Below are positions 3,244 through 9,313 of a stretch of DNA of 64,000 nucleotides, piece by piece. Below the pieces are notes generated by a model that worked only from the letters and a program-made list of their open reading frames with translations, did not search any database and was not told where the DNA came from. The stretch is from an uncultured Acidilobus sp. JCHS. GTDB lineage: Archaea; Thermoproteota; Thermoprotei_A; Sulfolobales; Acidilobaceae. Made by a program: the position numbers and the translations under genes. How positions within the stretch are numbered: position 1 is the first letter of the stretch; each line of letters starts with the position of its first letter. Location of the stretch: assembly GCA_000495735.1 (NCBI GenBank), contig AYMD01000001.1:292377-356376 (forward strand). Direction: 5' to 3'.

Positions 3244-5787
3244 TTGGGCAAGAGAGCTGGGAGCGGCATTGGCAGGAGGGACCACGCGGTCCTGGCAGCG
3301 TCTGTCGTCGTCCTCGTGTTGCTCCTCCTCATGGCCTACCTCACGCCCTTAGGCGTCCTGTTCAGCGCATCAAATCCCTACACAGGCGTCTACGGCTACT
3401 CCCTCAACGCGGTCGTCAGGTCTGAGACCCTTCACATAAAGGGCCTCTACAGGCCCGTCAGGGTCATAGTTGACAGGTACGGCGTCTACCACATATATGC
3501 CCAGGACCTGCACGACCTCTTCCTGGCCTTCGGCTTCATACAGGCAGAGAACAGGCTCTTCCAGCTTGACCTGGTTAGGAGGGCCGCCATAGGGAACCTT
3601 TCACCCATACTCGGCCCCTCCTACAGGTCCTACGACCTGTTCCAGCTCAAGATAGGCAACTACATAACTGCCGAGAGGGACTGGAACGAGACCCTGGAGC
3701 TGACTTCAACAGACTCCATGGCCAACATAACGGTCATGGCTCTCGAGGCCTACTCCCAGGGCGTAAACGACTACATAGAGTACGCCGAGGCCCACCACGA
3801 GCTCCCGTTTGAGTTCACGCTGTTGCGTTACACGCCGCAGCCCTGGACGCCTGTTGACTCCTTTGCCGTACAGCAGTATATGGTGGAGAGCCTGGAGTTC
3901 GGCGACGACCCCCTGATACTGTCACTGATGTACTACAAGATGGGCCAGCTTGCGAACTACCTCAACCCCCCGTTCCCGCCAATACCCCAGGTCTACTACG
4001 CCGGCTACAACGGCACGCCAAACGCCACGGTTGAGGAGGAGGCCGAGAACATATGGCCCATAAACTCGACCATAGCCCAGATGGCCTACGAGCTCTACAA
4101 GGAGTGGGACCCGCCCTTCATATCACCTCACGCAGTGGGGCACAGCAACGAGTGGGTGGTGTGCGGCAACAAGACGGCCACAGGCCGTCCAATACTTGTC
4201 GGCGGGCCGGTCCTGGGCTTCAGCCTCCCCTTCATATGGTTCGAGGCCCAGCTCGTGGCGCCGGGCTACGACGTCTTCGGCGTCTTCCTGCCGGGCGACC
4301 CCGCGCCGGTTATAGGCTTCAACCAGCACATAGCATGGACCCTGACGGACGTGCAGGCCATATCGTGGGGGATGTACTTCTTCGTGCAGACGGTCAACGG
4401 CACGGACTACTACTTCAACGGGTCCTGGCACCCGATAATACACTACTACGTGGACGGCGTCGAGCTCAACTGGACCAACTGGGGCCCGATAATGGTCCAG
4501 AACGGGAGCCTGGCCCTGGTAATGTACTGGCTGGGCAACACCTACTCCAACGACTTCGGGGTGCTCTTCTACATATCCAACGCCTCTAACTGGCAGCAGT
4601 TCTATGACGCCCTCAGGCACTGGCACGTGCCATACCAGAACTTCGCCTACGCCGACGTCTACGGCAACATAGGGGACGTGTCAGCCGGCATTTACCCCAT
4701 ATTCGCCTCCTCAGGCGGGGGCATACCGTACAGCCCTGACGCCATAATGCCAGGCGACGGGCAGGTCTACGTCAAGGGGTTCATACCATATGATGACATA
4801 CCTCACGCCTTCAACCCGCCGAGCTGCTTCATAGTGAGCTCGAACCAGAGGCAGGTTGGCCCCTCGTACCCGTACTGGTACGGGGACTCCATGAGCTTCT
4901 CGCCGGGGACCAGGGCGTGGGTCGTCTATGACTACCTCCTCTACCACAACAACATAAGCGTGCAGGACATGATGAGGCTTCAGTGGAACGAGACGGACCT
5001 GGCCGCCGCCTGGTCGATGCCGACCATAATTAGGACCCTCGAGCAGGACTCCTCTAACCCCTACGTGGCGACGGCCCTCAGCTACCTTAAGGGGTGGAAC
5101 TACACCATGAGCCCCGACTCTAAGGCCGCCACGATATGGTTCTACATCTACTCGGAGGTCTACTTCAACGTTATCTACGGCCTCTTCAACAGGACGGGCT
5201 TCTGGCCCGAGTTCAGCGCCATAAGGCCTGGCCCTGCGGGAGGCTCGTGGCCGGGAACCTTCGGGCTGGCGTCGCTCGACGAGGACGTCATACACTTGCT
5301 GATGACAGGCAACGGCACTCCCATATACAACGGGAGCGTCGACCAGCTCATAGTCAACTCGACGATAGAGGCCATGAAGCTCCTTGAGTCCTGGTTCCCC
5401 AACGGCAACTACACCTGGGCCAACTTCTACGGCTTCTACTGGCCGAGCCTGACAGGCGTCAAGGCCCTCAGCGTGGGCCCCCTGAGCGGGCTGGGCGGCG
5501 ACTACTTCACCCTCAACGACCAGAGCGGCGGGGGCGGCGGCCCGCTCCCAACCTCGCCTGGGCCAGGAGGGCAGAGCTGGACATTCATAGCGAACATGGC
5601 CAACCTAAGCGACTCCTACGGCGTCTACCCTGGCGGGCAAAGCGAGAACCCGGCGAGCCCCTACTACGACAACTACATCTTCACATGGATAAAGGGAAGG
5701 TACCTGCCCCTGCTCTTCATCGGCAGCTCTCAGGGCTTCGCGCCGTCCGAGGTGACTGCTGAGGTGAACCTCTTGCCCTCGGGGTGA
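3244..5787 (+). CDS. Membrane-anchored penicillin acylase family Ntn-hydrolase (peptidase S45)
   Basis: N-terminal hydrophobic anchor; VDRYGVYHIYA, FGFIQAENRLFQLD, nucleophile motif HSNEWV, QNFAYAD and PGGQSENP. Confidence 0.9.
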   Translation: MGKRAGSGIGRRDHAVLAASVVVLVLLLLMAYLTPLGVLFSASNPYTGVYGYSLNAVVRSETLHIKGLYRPVRVIVDRYGVYHIYAQDLHDLFLAFGFIQAENRLFQLDLVRRAAIGNLSPILGPSYRSYDLFQLKIGNYITAERDWNETLELTSTDSMANITVMALEAYSQGVNDYIEYAEAHHELPFEFTLLRYTPQPWTPVDSFAVQQYMVESLEFGDDPLILSLMYYKMGQLANYLNPPFPPIPQVYYAGYNGTPNATVEEEAENIWPINSTIAQMAYELYKEWDPPFISPHAVGHSNEWVVCGNKTATGRPILVGGPVLGFSLPFIWFEAQLVAPGYDVFGVFLPGDPAPVIGFNQHIAWTLTDVQAISWGMYFFVQTVNGTDYYFNGSWHPIIHYYVDGVELNWTNWGPIMVQNGSLALVMYWLGNTYSNDFGVLFYISNASNWQQFYDALRHWHVPYQNFAYADVYGNIGDVSAGIYPIFASSGGGIPYSPDAIMPGDGQVYVKGFIPYDDIPHAFNPPSCFIVSSNQRQVGPSYPYWYGDSMSFSPGTRAWVVYDYLLYHNNISVQDMMRLQWNETDLAAAWSMPTIIRTLEQDSSNPYVATALSYLKGWNYTMSPDSKAATIWFYIYSEVYFNVIYGLFNRTGFWPEFSAIRPGPAGGSWPGTFGLASLDEDVIHLLMTGNGTPIYNGSVDQLIVNSTIEAMKLLESWFPNGNYTWANFYGFYWPSLTGVKALSVGPLSGLGGDYFTLNDQSGGGGGPLPTSPGPGGQSWTFIANMANLSDSYGVYPGGQSENPASPYYDNYIFTWIKGRYLPLLFIGSSQGFAPSEVTAEVNLLPSG

Positions 5788-5791
5788 GAGC

Positions 5792-6151
5792 ATGAGGTAC
5801 TCCGTTAGCCTGGTCCTGGTGTTCGTGGTCACGCTTGCCCTGGCCTTCGCGCTCACGTACACTGGTCTGTGGCCCCTGACAGTGCTGGCTGGCCTCGTGG
5901 CCGCCCTGGCCTTCGCGCGGGAGTACGGCTGGTCATCACTGGCCTCCTTCCTCGGGGGCCTGACCTCCTCGGCCCTGTTCATAGAGGCCAACTACGCTGC
6001 CTCTGGCGCCCCGGCCCTCAGGGAGGCTTACCTCGCGGCCGACGTCGCGGGGGTGCCCGGGTTCACCTTCATAGCCGTCACGCTCCTGCTGACCGGCGTC
6101 TACTGTGTGATAGGAAACGTAATAGGGGTCTACATCAGGAAGCTGTTCTAG
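5792..6151 (+). CDS. Small multi-pass membrane protein, co-oriented with the acylase
   Basis: 119 aa with about 4 hydrophobic segments, starting 4 bp after the acylase stop. Confidence 0.7.
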   Translation: MRYSVSLVLVFVVTLALAFALTYTGLWPLTVLAGLVAALAFAREYGWSSLASFLGGLTSSALFIEANYAASGAPALREAYLAADVAGVPGFTFIAVTLLLTGVYCVIGNVIGVYIRKLF

Positions 6152-6318
6152 GGCCTTTTCATAGGGCCATCGGTGGTTTTTCTTAATTGGCGACAGGAAT
6201 TGCGTCGCGGCAGGCAGGAAGTGGCCTCCTAGTGGACCCATCTACGCGCTGCCTTAGAGTCCCTCGCTAGTCTATCTACAGCTTAGCGTATACCCTTAAA
6301 TGCAATTTAGATAAGTGA

Positions 6319-7770
6319 GTGAAGCGCTTGAGGGTGCTGCTGGCCCTTCCGCCCGACGTGCACAACCTCGAGATCTACAAGGTAACGGGCATGAGGGCCC
6401 CTCCCCTGGGCCTTGCCTACATAGGCACGGTCCTTGAGCAGGCGGGGCACAAGGTGAAGATCATAGACAGCCCCACGAGGAAGCTCAGGCTTGACGACTG
6501 GCTGGCTGAGGTCAAGTCCTTCTCCCCTGACGTAATAGGGGTCTCAATGATGACCCCCCTCGCGCCCAAGGGCTACCTGGCGGCCAAGGCGCTGAGGCAG
6601 GAGATGCCTGACGTGCCCCTGGTGGCGGGAGGGACCCACGTCACTTACATGTACGACGAGGCCCTGGACGCCGGCTACGACGTGGTGGTCAGGGGGGAGG
6701 GCGAGTACACCATGCTTGAGCTTGTCGACATCCTTGAGAGGAGAGGCCTTGACAGGGAGGCCCTGAAGTCCGTCAAGGGCCTCGCGTTAAGGGACCAGGG
6801 CAAGACCGTGGTGACCCCTGAGAGGCCCTTCATAGAGGACCTCGACAGGCTCCCGTGGCCCGACAGGGACCTCCTGGACATGGACAAGTACACACTGTTC
6901 GACAAGCCCATAAGGATAGCCCACGTGATGGCCAGCAGGGGCTGCCCCTACGGCTGCATGTACTGTATAACCAGCTACTACTGGGGCAGGAGGTACAGGT
7001 ACAGGTCGGCCAAGAACGTGGCTGACGAGATAGAGCACGTAGTCAACAAGTACAAGGTGAAGACCATAGTCTTCACCGACGACGAGTTCACGGCCAACTG
7101 GAGGTTCGTGAGGGAGTTCGTCAACGAGATAAGGACGAGGGGCCTCGACATAACCTTCTCCTGCGGCGCCAGGGTCGACCACGTTAACAGGGACATAATG
7201 AAGCTCCTCTACGACAACGGCTGCAACGCCCTCTACTTCGGGGTAGAGTCGGCCAGTCAGGAGACCCTGAACAGGATAGGGAAGAAGATAACGATAGAGC
7301 AGGCCAGGAGGGTGTTCCAGTGGAAGAAGGAGCTGGGGGGCTTCGCAACAGGGTCCTTCATCCTCGGCTTCCCGTGGGAGACCGTGCAGGACATGAAGGA
7401 TACCGTAAAGCTTGCAATTGAGCTCCAGCCTGACTACGCCCAGTTCACCGCCCTGACCCCCTACCCCGGCACCCCGCTATGGGACTTCGCCACCAAGCAC
7501 AACCTGATAGTTGACAGGAACTGGGAGCACTACACCACCGTGAGGCCAGTCATGAGGGGCTTCCACTTCACAGCCGAGCAGCTGGGCCACATGCTGATCT
7601 ACGCATACCGCAAGTTCTACATGAGGTGGGGCTTCATGGTCCAAGAGATAAGGGCGGGCAGGTTCGGCAACCTGGTGGAGGTCATACTCAAGGACCTCAC
7701 GTCCTTCTTCGGTGACGCCCTCGGAAGGGTGTTCGAGCCCCTGAGGTGGGGAGGAGGTGAGGAGCAATGA
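6319..7770 (+). CDS. B12-binding radical SAM protein (class B methylase-like)
   Basis: N-terminal cobalamin-binding domain (PPLGLAYIG...GGTHVT...GEGE), ASRGCPYGCMYC cluster motif, FTDDEF, GVESASQETL, FILGFPWET and TPYPGTPL. Confidence 0.9.
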   Translation: MKRLRVLLALPPDVHNLEIYKVTGMRAPPLGLAYIGTVLEQAGHKVKIIDSPTRKLRLDDWLAEVKSFSPDVIGVSMMTPLAPKGYLAAKALRQEMPDVPLVAGGTHVTYMYDEALDAGYDVVVRGEGEYTMLELVDILERRGLDREALKSVKGLALRDQGKTVVTPERPFIEDLDRLPWPDRDLLDMDKYTLFDKPIRIAHVMASRGCPYGCMYCITSYYWGRRYRYRSAKNVADEIEHVVNKYKVKTIVFTDDEFTANWRFVREFVNEIRTRGLDITFSCGARVDHVNRDIMKLLYDNGCNALYFGVESASQETLNRIGKKITIEQARRVFQWKKELGGFATGSFILGFPWETVQDMKDTVKLAIELQPDYAQFTALTPYPGTPLWDFATKHNLIVDRNWEHYTTVRPVMRGFHFTAEQLGHMLIYAYRKFYMRWGFMVQEIRAGRFGNLVEVILKDLTSFFGDALGRVFEPLRWGGGEEQ

Positions 7771-9313
7771 GTGAGGGGTTCAGCCCCGTAGTGGAGGACG
7801 TAAGCGGGGAGAAGAAGGAGAAGGGCGACATAGGTCACCTGCTCGCGGGATAAGGTTTATCTTCAACAACCCCGTGACGAAGGCCTCGCTGAGGCTGGCC
7901 ACGAGGACTGTGAGGGTGAGGTACGCTGACGGCACAGAGAAGGAGGCCCCCCTGATATACCACGCGCTGAGCGCCTTCGTGGGCGAGCAGATAGTCCAGT
8001 GCCCGCTCTCCGCCAGGTTCCTGATACCGATCATTAACAAGACCATAGAGGTGGGCATCAAGTTCCTTCACGGTGATATTGACGAAGCGAGGAAGTCCAT
8101 AAAGGATCCCACGATAAGGAGAGGCGTAGCGCTCGTCATGAGGGGCCTGGGCCTCTACGGCGTCACTGTGCCCCAGAAGATGCCTGCGCCCTTCCTGGTA
8201 GTCTGGAACTTCACAAACATGTGCAACCTGAGGTGCATACACTGCTACCAGAGGGCCGGGGCGCCGACGCCTGACGAGCTGAGTCTTGAGGAGAAGCTGA
8301 GGGTAGTGGACGAGCTGGACAGGGCAGGGGTGGCCTCAATAGCGCTGAGCGGGGGTGAGCCCACTATACACCCTCACTTTCACAGGATAGTCAAGGAGAT
8401 AGCGAGCAGGGGCATACACACGGCCGTCGCGACCAATGGCTGGGTGTTCGCAAACATAAACGAGCTCGCGAAGGCCAAGGAGGAGGGGCTCAAGTACGTT
8501 GAGGTCTCCATAGACAGCGCTGACCCAGACAAGCACGACAAGTTCAGGGGCGTCAAGGGGTCGTGGGAGAGGGCCGTCAAGGCCCTCGAGAACGCAGTCA
8601 AGCTGGGCATGGACCACGGCATGGCTGTCACGATAACCAAGCTGAACATAGGCGAGGTCAAGGAGATACTTGACCTGGCCGAGGAGATAGGAGTCAGGAG
8701 GGTCATATTCTTCAACTTCGTGCCGACCGGGAGAGGGCTTGAGAACATGTGGCTCGACCTTGACCCAGTTGAGAGGGAGAAGTTCCTGAGGGAGATCTAC
8801 ACCGAGATGAAGAGGAGGCCTGGCCTTCAGATAGTGAGCACGGCCCCTCAGTACGGCAGGGTGGCGCTCCAGGTAAGCGGGGGGCAGGAGGTGGCGCCCA
8901 CTCACTTCGCCGTCAGCGGCGACCCCATAGTAAAGGCTGTGGCGGAGTTCGTAGGGGGCTGCGGGGCGGGCAGGATATATGCGGCCATAGAGCCCAACGG
9001 GGACGTGGTGCCCTGCGTCTTCCTGCCCATCGTAGTGGGGAACCTGAGGAAGCAGAGCTTCTGGGACATCTGGACTAAGTCGAAGCTCTTCGAGGACCTG
9101 AGGGACAGGGACAAGCTCAAGGGGTTCTGCAGGGTCTGCCCGTACCGCAACATATGCGGGGGCTGCAGGGCAAGGGCCTACGGCTACTACGGCGACCCGC
9201 TGGCGCCTGACCCGGGCTGCATATACAACCTGAAGGACTGGAATGAGCTTCAGGCCAAGGCTCCTAGGGTGAGGCTGGCAGAGCAGTCCTCAGGCCAGCA
9301 GTCAAGTCCTTAG
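7767..9313 (+). CDS. Radical SAM/SPASM protein; apparent 1-nt frameshift near 7847-7850
   Basis: CNLRCIHC, SGGEP, GCGAG...PCVFL and CRVCPYRNICGGCRARA (SPASM). ATG 7767 has a GGAGGTGA SD and overlaps the upstream stop, but reads 28 codons into TAA 7851; the main ORF continues in the -1 frame (GIRFIFNNPV). Confidence 0.85.

Follow-up and report, generated by a model that had tools for sequence, protein, structure and literature searches.

The question raised by this locus is what two overlapping radical SAM genes are for, found at positions 6319-9313 of a window (the whole stretch of DNA that was analysed, 64,000 nucleotides) from an uncultured Acidilobus. An earlier note had read them as a gmm-gms locus in an Acidilobales-like host, and this reading is supported, as all its testable parts held. 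A gmm-gms pair, by which tetraether membrane lipids are cross-linked and methylated, was published in 2024 (PMC11214058), and the genes studied here would be a further copy of it in a hot-spring Acidilobus, most likely so regarding the Gmm part. It is quite probable that they form a two-gene operon (gmm and gms) tailoring tetraether membrane lipids. As for the host, the nearest loci are labelled Acidilobus sp. and share 82-97% identity, which agrees with the lineage first proposed. Conceptually, nothing new is added to the published Gms/Gmm system, the locus rather providing a concrete organism for a lipid test.

The first gene, gmm (6319-7770, forward strand), encodes a cobalamin-type (class B) radical SAM protein of 483 aa, a putative GMGT methylase. 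Its class B nature, noticed from the start, was confirmed by the Pfam matches to the B12-binding domain (PF02310, 1.2e-25, residues 24-135) and to Radical_SAM (PF04055, 1.4e-27, residues 206-366), and these two domains in a protein of at least 400 aa constitute the architecture of Gmm. The CX3CX2C motif of the radical SAM cluster lies at 6943-6966 (forward strand), its cysteines C209, C213 and C216 being found in RGCPYGCMYC of the translation and invariant in 42 homologs. In addition, the AF2 model of the protein matches AprD4 and the cobalamin radical SAM enzymes TsrM, MgmA, CysS and TokK. The gene may instead start at TTG 6328, because the homolog consensus opens with MRVLL.

Directly 5' of gmm, an A/T-rich stretch (6293-6314, forward strand) resembles a promoter, with TTAAAT at 6296-6301 and TTTAGATAA at 6306-6314; it presumably acts as one, and its position suggests a leaderless or near-leaderless transcript for the first gene. 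Between the bins 6102-6235 and 6370-6503 (X8 and X19), RNA-derived contigs gain about 20- to 1500-fold in depth, and one X19 contig starts at about 6322. Moreover, RNA contigs of four hot-spring metatranscriptomes, derived from close relatives, cover both genes and span their junction, indicating that gmm-gms is transcribed in situ by closely related populations.

The second gene, gms (7767-9313, forward strand), is a GMGT synthase-type radical SAM/SPASM gene that would encode 515 aa with one G restored. As deposited, it is divided into two frames of the forward strand: frame A (7767-7853), consisting of 28 codons (MSEGFSPVVEDVSGEKKEKGDIGHLLAG) followed by TAA at 7851-7853, and frame B (about 7775-9313), the radical SAM/SPASM frame, with GTG 7874 as its first possible start. 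The homologs P0001-P0003 (86-95% identity, 515-522 aa), which begin with MSEGFSPVVEDVSGEKKEKGDIGHLLAGIRFIF and similar, are uninterrupted at this place (...GHLLAGIRFIFNNPVT...), and therefore one base is missing from the window in GCGGG/ATA (7845-7852), where a G-run of the forward strand (7847-7849) reads GGG in the window and GGGG in read-derived contigs. X1, a Logan contig with a depth of 3.9x, carries the extra G behind 7846 and is otherwise identical to the window over 7000-8352 (1353 positions). The other support comes from Logan contigs of close relatives, eight runs of which, four being metatranscriptomes, also have the extra G: at full depth in X2, X3, X4, X6, X9 and X19, and at part depth, with split contigs, in X5 (4490/7970) and X8 (17938/37446).

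As seen by the extra G in X1 and in the runs of the eight relatives, gms is most likely intact, with 515 aa, and the frameshift at 7847-7849 is most likely a one-base assembly error caused by a homopolymer miscount. If the frameshift were real, gms would be a pseudogene, or would lose its first 36 residues by starting at GTG 7874, and Gmm alone would be functional. This is distinctly unlikely: although the deposited sequence does have GGG and a TAA in the ATG frame, X1 has a depth of only 3.9, and X5 and X8 contain contigs both with and without the extra G, X1 shows GGGG while matching the window at its other 1353 positions, all homologs are uninterrupted, the part that would be lost holds a near-invariant GxLLAGxRLLFNNP helix, and the miscounting of homopolymers is a common assembly error. 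Regarding annotation, gms in the deposited genome most likely appears broken only through such a miscount.

The missing base also bears on the junction of the two genes, where the ATG of gms (7767-7769) overlaps the TGA of gmm (7768-7770) to give ATGA, with a Shine-Dalgarno-like GGAGGTGA (7753-7760, forward strand) six bases 5' of the gms start codon. The earlier note had claimed translational coupling from these two elements, both of which are present; however, the ATG frame has only 28 codons in the given sequence, and the note had read across the frameshift in the raw sequence. The coupling itself is biologically real.

The 28-codon ORF (7767-7853) could be taken for a precursor peptide, making the locus a RiPP or cofactor maturation pair, as pairs of B12 radical SAM and SPASM maturases are typical of RiPP loci and the 28-aa ORF stands between the genes with a strong ribosome-binding site. 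Such an origin is scarcely credible and is refuted by the uninterrupted homologs and the read-derived contigs, since this ORF is the N-terminus of Gms severed by the missing G, all relatives having one long ORF instead, and the operon has neither a further small conserved ORF nor a protease or transporter. No independent small precursor-peptide ORF is present, as had been noted at the outset.

Once restored, Gms shows the domains that were initially assigned to it, with Pfam matches to Radical_SAM (4.1e-33) and SPASM (1.4e-13). Its CX3CX2C motif is located at 8222-8245 (forward strand; C153, C157 and C160 in the corrected numbering), and as it stands 152 residues from ATG 7767, the long N-terminal extension described before is real. 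The SPASM region (8960-9220, forward strand) contains C399, C417, C455, C458, C464, C467 and C485, predicted to bind two auxiliary Fe-S clusters, and these seven cysteines are invariant in 43 homologs together with C153, C157 and C160. In the AF2 model of P0001 (95% identical; pLDDT 82.9), six N-terminal helices are followed by the radical SAM barrel and then by SPASM, the extension comprising helices within residues 23-131 and a small sheet at pLDDT of about 80-92. No Pfam model matches this N-terminal domain, and phmmer alignments with distant long-form relatives start about 75-80 residues ahead of the core, at residues 24-31 of the 479-aa translation. The best PDB folds for the model are SuiB, PqqE and anSME.

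Architecturally, these features fit the published definition of Gms, also called Hbs (PMC11214058; PMC11186832): an AhbD homolog extended at its N-terminus by about 100 aa or more, the extension being described as COG4001-annotated and as a separate helical hydrophobic domain (Garcia et al., PMC11214058), while Li et al. reported the layout of N-terminal helices, radical SAM barrel and SPASM in the same enzyme (PMC11186832). The protein encoded here has the corresponding core, an AhbD-like radical SAM/SPASM unit with CX3CX2C and the cysteines for two auxiliary clusters. Compared by description with the Gms proteins of T. guaymasensis (WP_062369926.1), T. celer (A3L02_02305), P. furiosus (PF0647) and M. 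okinawensis (METOK_RS04425), it shares the AhbD-like core, CX3CX2C with a seven-cysteine SPASM, the predicted six-helix N-terminal domain, a neighbouring B12 radical SAM gene and a host that has Tes and is an anaerobic hyperthermophile. On the other hand, its extension has about 150 aa, compared to about 100-120 aa, the deposited gene carries the one-base frameshift, and gms is downstream of gmm, whereas it is upstream in T. guaymasensis and the Thermoproteales.

The published Gms clade is separate from AhbD and includes the confirmed GMGT producers and the proteins that were expressed. Within a tree built from 138 relatives, constructed without the Gms of T. guaymasensis, T. celer, P. furiosus and M. 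okinawensis and without the M. barkeri AhbD, the second gene falls into a clade dominated by proteins with a long extension (66-67 of 74 such sequences), its own subclade having a support of 1.0. Clustering with AhbC/D or PqqE, which would have spoken against a lipid enzyme, was not found. The representatives P0242-P0251 come from metagenomes, Methermicoccus, Bathyarchaeota, Aigarchaeota and Thermotogota, none being from the Thermococcales. Moreover, the second gene shares 62% identity with the sole Gms-like gene of a genome presumed to be that of Ignisphaera aggregans, for which GMGT production has been published, and 55-57% with the one such gene present in Vulcanisaeta genomes. For both proteins of the pair, membership in Gms and Gmm rests on architecture, on elimination within identified genomes and on statements of the papers about Thermoprotei.

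The AhbD model TIGR04545 spans the core of the second protein fully (3.3e-72, residues 108-452 of the 479-aa translation from GTG 7874), which raises the reading of a heme or heme d1 enzyme of the AhbD/NirJ type. AhbD and NirJ2 are the best NCBIfam matches, at about 244 bits, and 'heme biosynthesis protein' is the database name in Pyrodictium occultum. However, such scores are half of the equivalog cut-offs (243.8 bits versus 500 for TIGR04545), and AhbD (M. barkeri Mbar_A1458), with about 340 aa, shares the core and lacks the extra 152-aa N-terminal domain and the lipid-enzyme context. The neighbour of the second gene is a lipid-type B12 radical SAM gene, three other, shorter AhbD/NirJ-like paralogs are located elsewhere in the genome, and extended AhbD homologs were shown to be Gms (PMC11214058), leaving the heme reading very unlikely. 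Tes was also considered for the second gene and rejected, as the PDB structure of GDGT-MAS matches its radical SAM core only (2e-13) and the true Tes is encoded elsewhere, at C9:197081 (591 aa; NF045702, 716 bits with a cut-off of 450; PDB 7TOL, 1.7e-129). With Tes present, the host is predicted to be able to make GDGT, the substrate of Gms. Regarding the family, the apparent fusion P0257 (956 aa) proved to be a Gms with an intein in the radical SAM domain, shortly past CX3CX2C.

The first gene is most likely the GMGT methylase Gmm, as judged from comparisons at the protein and genome level, and the statement in the earlier note that Gmm is a B12 radical SAM enzyme encoded beside gms is correct (PMC11214058). 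By description, it resembles the Gmm of T. guaymasensis (WP_062369928.1) in its B12-binding and radical SAM domains, its length of about 480 aa and its overlap and translational coupling with gms, differing in the reversed gene order; Gmm is widespread in Thermoprotei, mostly together with gms, as is the case here. The published criterion for Gmm is a BLASTP E-value of 1e-65 or better to the T. guaymasensis protein, in a clade apart from MoeK5. Cgm (Saci_1785) and Pgm (T. aggregans; bioRxiv 10.1101/2025.10.20.683597) belong to the same superfamily.

For the S. acidocaldarius references, the genome was recognised partly by a 100% Sac7d match, and the GrsA, GrsB and Cgm loci were assigned by chromosomal position. 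The first gene is 31.6% identical over 446 residues (3e-67) to the protein at 1.55 Mb, which is Saci_1785/Cgm by position, and is as distant from it (32%) as the published T. guaymasensis Gmm (34%, 7e-72). The published criteria for Cgm are an E-value of 1e-99 or better to Saci_1785 and more than 495 aa, so the first gene, with 3e-67 and 483 aa, lies outside them and is distinct from Cgm/Pgm. Across the order, superfamily scores are bimodal, with orthologs at 49% identity or more and a Cgm-like class at 30-35%, the latter, whose open frames measure 525-593 aa, being present in Sulfolobaceae and a small number of further families; gms is absent from all 20 genomes that hold the Cgm-like class alone. 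In its own genome, no other member of the Gmm/Cgm superfamily accompanies the first gene, which is also the only strong B12 radical SAM gene of its type. Each intact Vulcanisaeta genome likewise has one ortholog, at 57-58% identity, directly after gms and as the sole superfamily member, while it is broken or absent in other Vulcanisaeta assemblies; V. distributa was reported to have Gmm and methylated GMGTs.

A pairing of grs with gms, the first gene being a Grs, was at first favoured by the JGI name of its homologs (BchE-type cyclase), by the ring-containing GDGTs that Acidilobus makes and by the impression that this was the sole B12 radical SAM gene of the genome; moreover, T. guaymasensis has a grs gene in the vicinity of gms. 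GrsA and GrsB (Saci_1585 and Saci_0240; Zeng et al. 2019) are radical SAM enzymes whose N-terminal domain is Rossmann-like and whose targets are GDGT chains, and published surveys apply 1e-40 or better to them, whereas the first gene is almost unrelated (3e-4 to GrsA and 1e-5 to GrsB). The Grs of this genome are encoded elsewhere, by a GrsA ortholog at C8:127409 (55% identity over the full length) and a second Grs at C9:85847 (31-33%), and the reading is refuted given the assignment of loci by position, which makes it highly improbable. Another candidate for Grs, at C2:148319 (548 aa), was rejected, as its family is a narrow, TIGR03960-like one with 77 hits, none of them from Sulfolobus.

The association of both genes is preserved far beyond this genome. 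The pair is kept in 49 of 65 informative related loci, gms being directly downstream of the gene 1 ortholog in 41 and directly upstream in 8, and with domain E-values of 1e-25 to 1e-33 this goes beyond chance. Likewise, gms is present in 96 of 110 genomes with an ortholog of the first gene (odds ratio 41, p 4e-39, kinship ignored). A contig profile search whose alignment was led by a 'Sulfolobaceae archaeon' homolog, a label that probably reflects GTDB-style naming, returned 80 loci, all from anaerobic Thermoprotei. Candidate gmm-gms fusions of 983 to 995 aa in three genomes were discarded, as both genes lie in the same frame with one stop codon between them, which had been read through.

As the methylation activity of the Thermoprotei clade is ascribed to it by inference, another function of the first gene within the Gmm/Cgm/Pgm/Ted superfamily has to be weighed, such as methylation of unbridged or cyclised GDGTs or chain desaturation, its linkage to gms then reflecting a shared substrate pool. 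Cgm, Pgm and the desaturase Ted, which are about 31-34% identical to Gmm, differ in substrate or even in chemistry, the only Gmm expressed so far is that of T. guaymasensis, and the ortholog occurs without gms in 14 of the 110 genomes, in line with the gmm-only genomes noted by Garcia et al. (PMC11214058). Nevertheless, the adjacency to gms is tight and old, with either gene coming first (49 of 65 loci), V. distributa has methylated GMGTs while intact Vulcanisaeta genomes contain this one member only, and the Cgm-like class is separate, longer and never accompanied by gms, so that a function of this kind is unlikely. Similarly improbable is that this clade is not a simple GMGT methylase, catalyzing instead another B12-dependent reaction on GMGTs, or acting before or together with Gms, for instance by making ready the site on the chain where Gms forms its bridge. 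The first gene is mostly upstream of gms and translationally coupled to it in Acidilobaceae and Desulfurococcales-type loci, and this, along with the varied chemistry of the superfamily (Cgm, Pgm and Ted), is why it may act before or with Gms.

Considering the preferred assignment as Gmm and Gms, their chemistry, substrate and order of action can be drawn from the literature. The Tes of the host would make GDGTs, to which GrsA and the second Grs would add rings. Gms, an AhbD-derived radical SAM enzyme with three predicted Fe-S clusters and a helical, putatively lipid-binding N-terminal domain, would then take hydrogens from both biphytanyl chains of a GDGT, the resulting C-C bond giving the H-shaped GMGT. 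Afterwards, the cobalamin-dependent Gmm would put at least one methyl group on the alkyl chain, using one SAM to form methylcobalamin and a second SAM to generate the 5'-deoxyadenosyl radical. Both genes would be co-transcribed from the promoter just 5' of gmm, and the ATGA overlap, along with a ribosome-binding site belonging to gms itself, would couple the translation of gms to that of gmm.

GMGTs and their methylated or cyclised forms serve as biomarkers of temperature and redox conditions, and ARN acids are proposed to derive from them. Garcia et al. (PMC11214058) name the Acidilobales as one of the few cultured groups in which Gms, GrsA and GrsB are all encoded. In the present genome, the locus, along with Tes, GrsA and the second Grs encoded elsewhere, predicts ring-bearing, methylated GMGTs in hot-spring Acidilobus.

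The two genes of the putative gmm-gms pair lie on the forward strand and comprise a B12 radical SAM gene (gene 1, 6319-7770) and a radical SAM/SPASM gene (gene 2, 7767-9313). Gene 1 encodes 483 aa, in which a B12-binding domain (PF02310, 1.2e-25) precedes the radical SAM domain (PF04055, 1.4e-27), as expected from the class B assignment made earlier; its top curated-family matches are only cobalamin radical SAM enzymes (BchE, HpnJ, HpnR, PhpK and others), all far under their cut-offs. The proposed ATGA overlap with a Shine-Dalgarno sequence is also present, as ATG 7767-7769 overlaps TGA 7768-7770 and GGAGGTGA is located six bases upstream. Immediately upstream, there are a penicillin-amidase-family gene (3244-5787; 847 aa, PF01804 4.6e-146), whose product has a membrane or signal segment at its N-terminus, and a gene for a small multi-pass membrane protein (5792-6151, 119 aa); downstream of gene 2 follows a gene for A-type ATPase subunit C in convergent orientation. 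As these neighbours are unrelated to the pair, the unit comprises only two genes.

Regarding gene 2, the frame opened by ATG 7767 ends after 28 codons at TAA 7851-7853, and the radical SAM and SPASM domains are encoded in a second frame on the same strand, whose first start is GTG 7874 and which ends at 9313. Homologs of 515-522 aa (86-95% identity) have the same N-terminal residues and then run on into the second frame (...GHLLAGIRFIFNNPVT), the window differing from them by a single G in the run at 7847-7849, where GGG stands in place of GGGG. The extra G is present in a read-derived (Logan) contig of run X1, which is otherwise identical to the window across 7000-8352, and in contigs from eight runs of close relatives, four of them metatranscriptomes; in runs X5 and X8, it is supported by part of the contig depth only. 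The frameshift is thus very probably a homopolymer error in the deposited sequence, in which case gms would be intact, 515 aa long (7767-9313) and translationally coupled to gene 1. The earlier description of two coupled radical SAM genes holds in that respect, but it overlooked this one-base frameshift, most likely an assembly error. Since the indel splits gms, the protein is probably missing from the deposited protein set; no 100%-identical gene 2 protein was among the homolog search results. The 28-codon frame was dropped as a candidate precursor peptide, because its residues are the start of full-length gene 2 homologs, in agreement with the earlier view that no small precursor-peptide ORF is evident.

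In four hot-spring metatranscriptomes, contig depth steps up between ~6236 and 6503, stays high through both genes and drops past ~9317, and single RNA contigs bridge the junction of the two genes (X19, 7305-8614; X4, 7492-8614; X6, 7315-8034), indicating that the pair is transcribed as one unit in situ by close relatives (95-99% identity). RNA depth over the genes at 3244-6151 is far below that over gmm-gms. One RNA contig starts at ~6322 and the consensus of gene 1 homologs starts with MRVLL, so translation of gene 1 may really begin at TTG 6328, on a nearly leaderless mRNA.

Garcia et al. (PMC11214058) identified Gms as a homolog of AhbD that is extended at its N-terminus by ~100 aa (COG4001), the added residues forming a hydrophobic pocket. 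Li et al. (PMC11186832) divide the enzyme into four parts: a six-helix N-terminal domain, the radical SAM domain, a region that bridges to the next domain, and SPASM, which carries two auxiliary clusters. The long extension noticed earlier in gene 2 amounts to 152 residues before the CX3CX2C motif, compared to the ~100 aa of Garcia et al., and its SPASM domain has seven invariant cysteines. In the AlphaFold model of a 95%-identical homolog (pLDDT 82.9), residues 23-131 fold into six helices ahead of the barrel and SPASM, with SuiB, PqqE and anSME as the best solved-structure matches. Gene 2 aligns over the full AhbD and NirJ2 models at ~244 bits, half of their 500-bit cut-offs. When the whole library was searched with HMMER, the clusters nearest to gene 2 (42-51% identity) all had lengths of 470-500 aa. 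Several alignments begin 75-80 residues ahead of the core, so homologs of the extension exist in distant lineages, among them Methermicoccus, Bathyarchaeota, Aigarchaeota and one Thermotogota MAG. In a FastTree phylogeny of 138 relatives, gene 2 falls in a clade with 66-67 of the 74 long-extension sequences. Gene 2 is thus a probable member of the Gms clade in its strict, published sense. Its identification as Tes was rejected; the host's Tes is encoded elsewhere in the genome, at C9:197081 (716 bits, cut-off 450; match to PDB 7TOL at 1.7e-129), so that the GDGT substrate is available. A metagenomic Gms-like protein of 956 aa (P0257) carries an intein with a LAGLIDADG endonuclease in the radical SAM domain, shortly past CX3CX2C, resembling the intein-bearing Tes variants for which NCBIfam has separate models.

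Ring-bearing GDGTs are made by Acidilobus according to the literature, and gene 1 could thus be weighed as a ring synthase (Grs). At first impression, it was the sole B12 radical SAM gene of the genome, until two others were found as Grs: a GrsA ortholog (C8:127409-127969, reverse strand, 504 aa) with full-length 55% identity to the GrsA of S. acidocaldarius, and a further paralog (C9:85847-86419, forward strand, 537 aa) with 33% identity to GrsA and 31% to GrsB. For comparison, the radical SAM genes of the genome taken as S. acidocaldarius DSM 639, picked by a 100% Sac7d match, were listed; three long B12-type genes at 0.20, 1.35 and 1.55 Mb are, by chromosomal order, presumably Saci_0240 (GrsB), Saci_1585 (GrsA) and Saci_1785 (the cyclised-GDGT methylase Cgm). 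Gene 1 matches the Cgm locus at 31.6% identity (3e-67), and its match to GrsB (E 1e-5) and GrsA (E 3e-4) is near null; together with the two Grs genes, this rules out gene 1 as Grs. The inventory agrees with the Garcia preprint, which attributes Gms, GrsA and GrsB to cultured Acidilobales. Gene 1 and T. guaymasensis Gmm are equally distant from Saci_1785, the published values for the latter being 34% and 7e-72. The structure model of gene 1 reaches the 'cobalamin radical SAM' level of assignment only, and the Gmm superfamily includes, at similar identity, members with other substrates and one desaturase. The gene 2 architecture, the exclusion of Grs and the linkage with gms support the gmm-gms reading put forward in the earlier note, and a function of gene 1 other than GMGT methylation is unlikely.

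In an order-level survey of 325 genomes, gene 1 matches were bimodal: orthologs (at least 49% identity) occur in 110, and in 20, Sulfolobaceae among them, the sole match belongs to a separate Cgm-like class (30-35% identity, frames of 525-593 aa). Gms is present in 127 of the 325 genomes, in 96 of the 110 with an ortholog (odds ratio 41, p 4e-39, uncorrected for phylogeny) and in none of the 20 Cgm-only genomes. Of the 80 related loci taken from named assemblies, 41 have gms immediately downstream of the gene 1 ortholog and 8 have it immediately upstream; in one (an Ignisphaera MAG) it is ~7 kb off, in 15 it is absent despite enough sequence, and 15 are undeterminable. The genome taken as A. 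saccharovorans carries the pair at 82-88% identity. Genomes G162-G165 and G167 of family f7, and G170 (G162 being probably Ignicoccus hospitalis, and G170 taken as I. aggregans), have gms and lack a gmm ortholog, so that any GMGTs they make are predicted to carry no methyl groups. Each intact Vulcanisaeta genome has one gene 1 ortholog (57-58% identity), immediately after gms, and otherwise a weak Grs-like match only. As Garcia et al. report methylated GMGTs from V. distributa and list Gms, Gmm, GrsA and GrsB among its enzymes, this ortholog is, by elimination, probably the Gmm of those authors. In Vulcanisaeta G333, G334, G335, G338, G339 and G340 (L152, L157-L161), the gmm ortholog is fragmented or has in-frame stops, up to five in G339, which may reflect repeated pseudogenisation or assembly errors.

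The locus is therefore best read as a further member of the published gmm-gms system, a pair that is ordinary among anaerobic Thermoprotei, with its function predicted from sequence; with the GrsA ortholog, the second Grs and Tes, the host would be fully equipped for tetraethers with rings, bridges and methyl groups. Other radical SAM genes of the genome include three AhbD/NirJ-like radical SAM/SPASM paralogs of 375-393 aa (C1:158937, C1:169809 and C1:172009), spaced within 14 kb and ~120-135 kb upstream of the window, which may be a gene cluster for heme, siroheme or another cofactor. In addition, C2:148319 (L010:787-2433) encodes a TIGR03960-like radical SAM protein of 548 aa with an N-terminal Radical_SAM_N2 domain, whose close relatives are found in Acidilobus, Caldisphaera and Pyrobaculum only and whose distant relatives are bacterial and fused to DUF2344 (PF10105).
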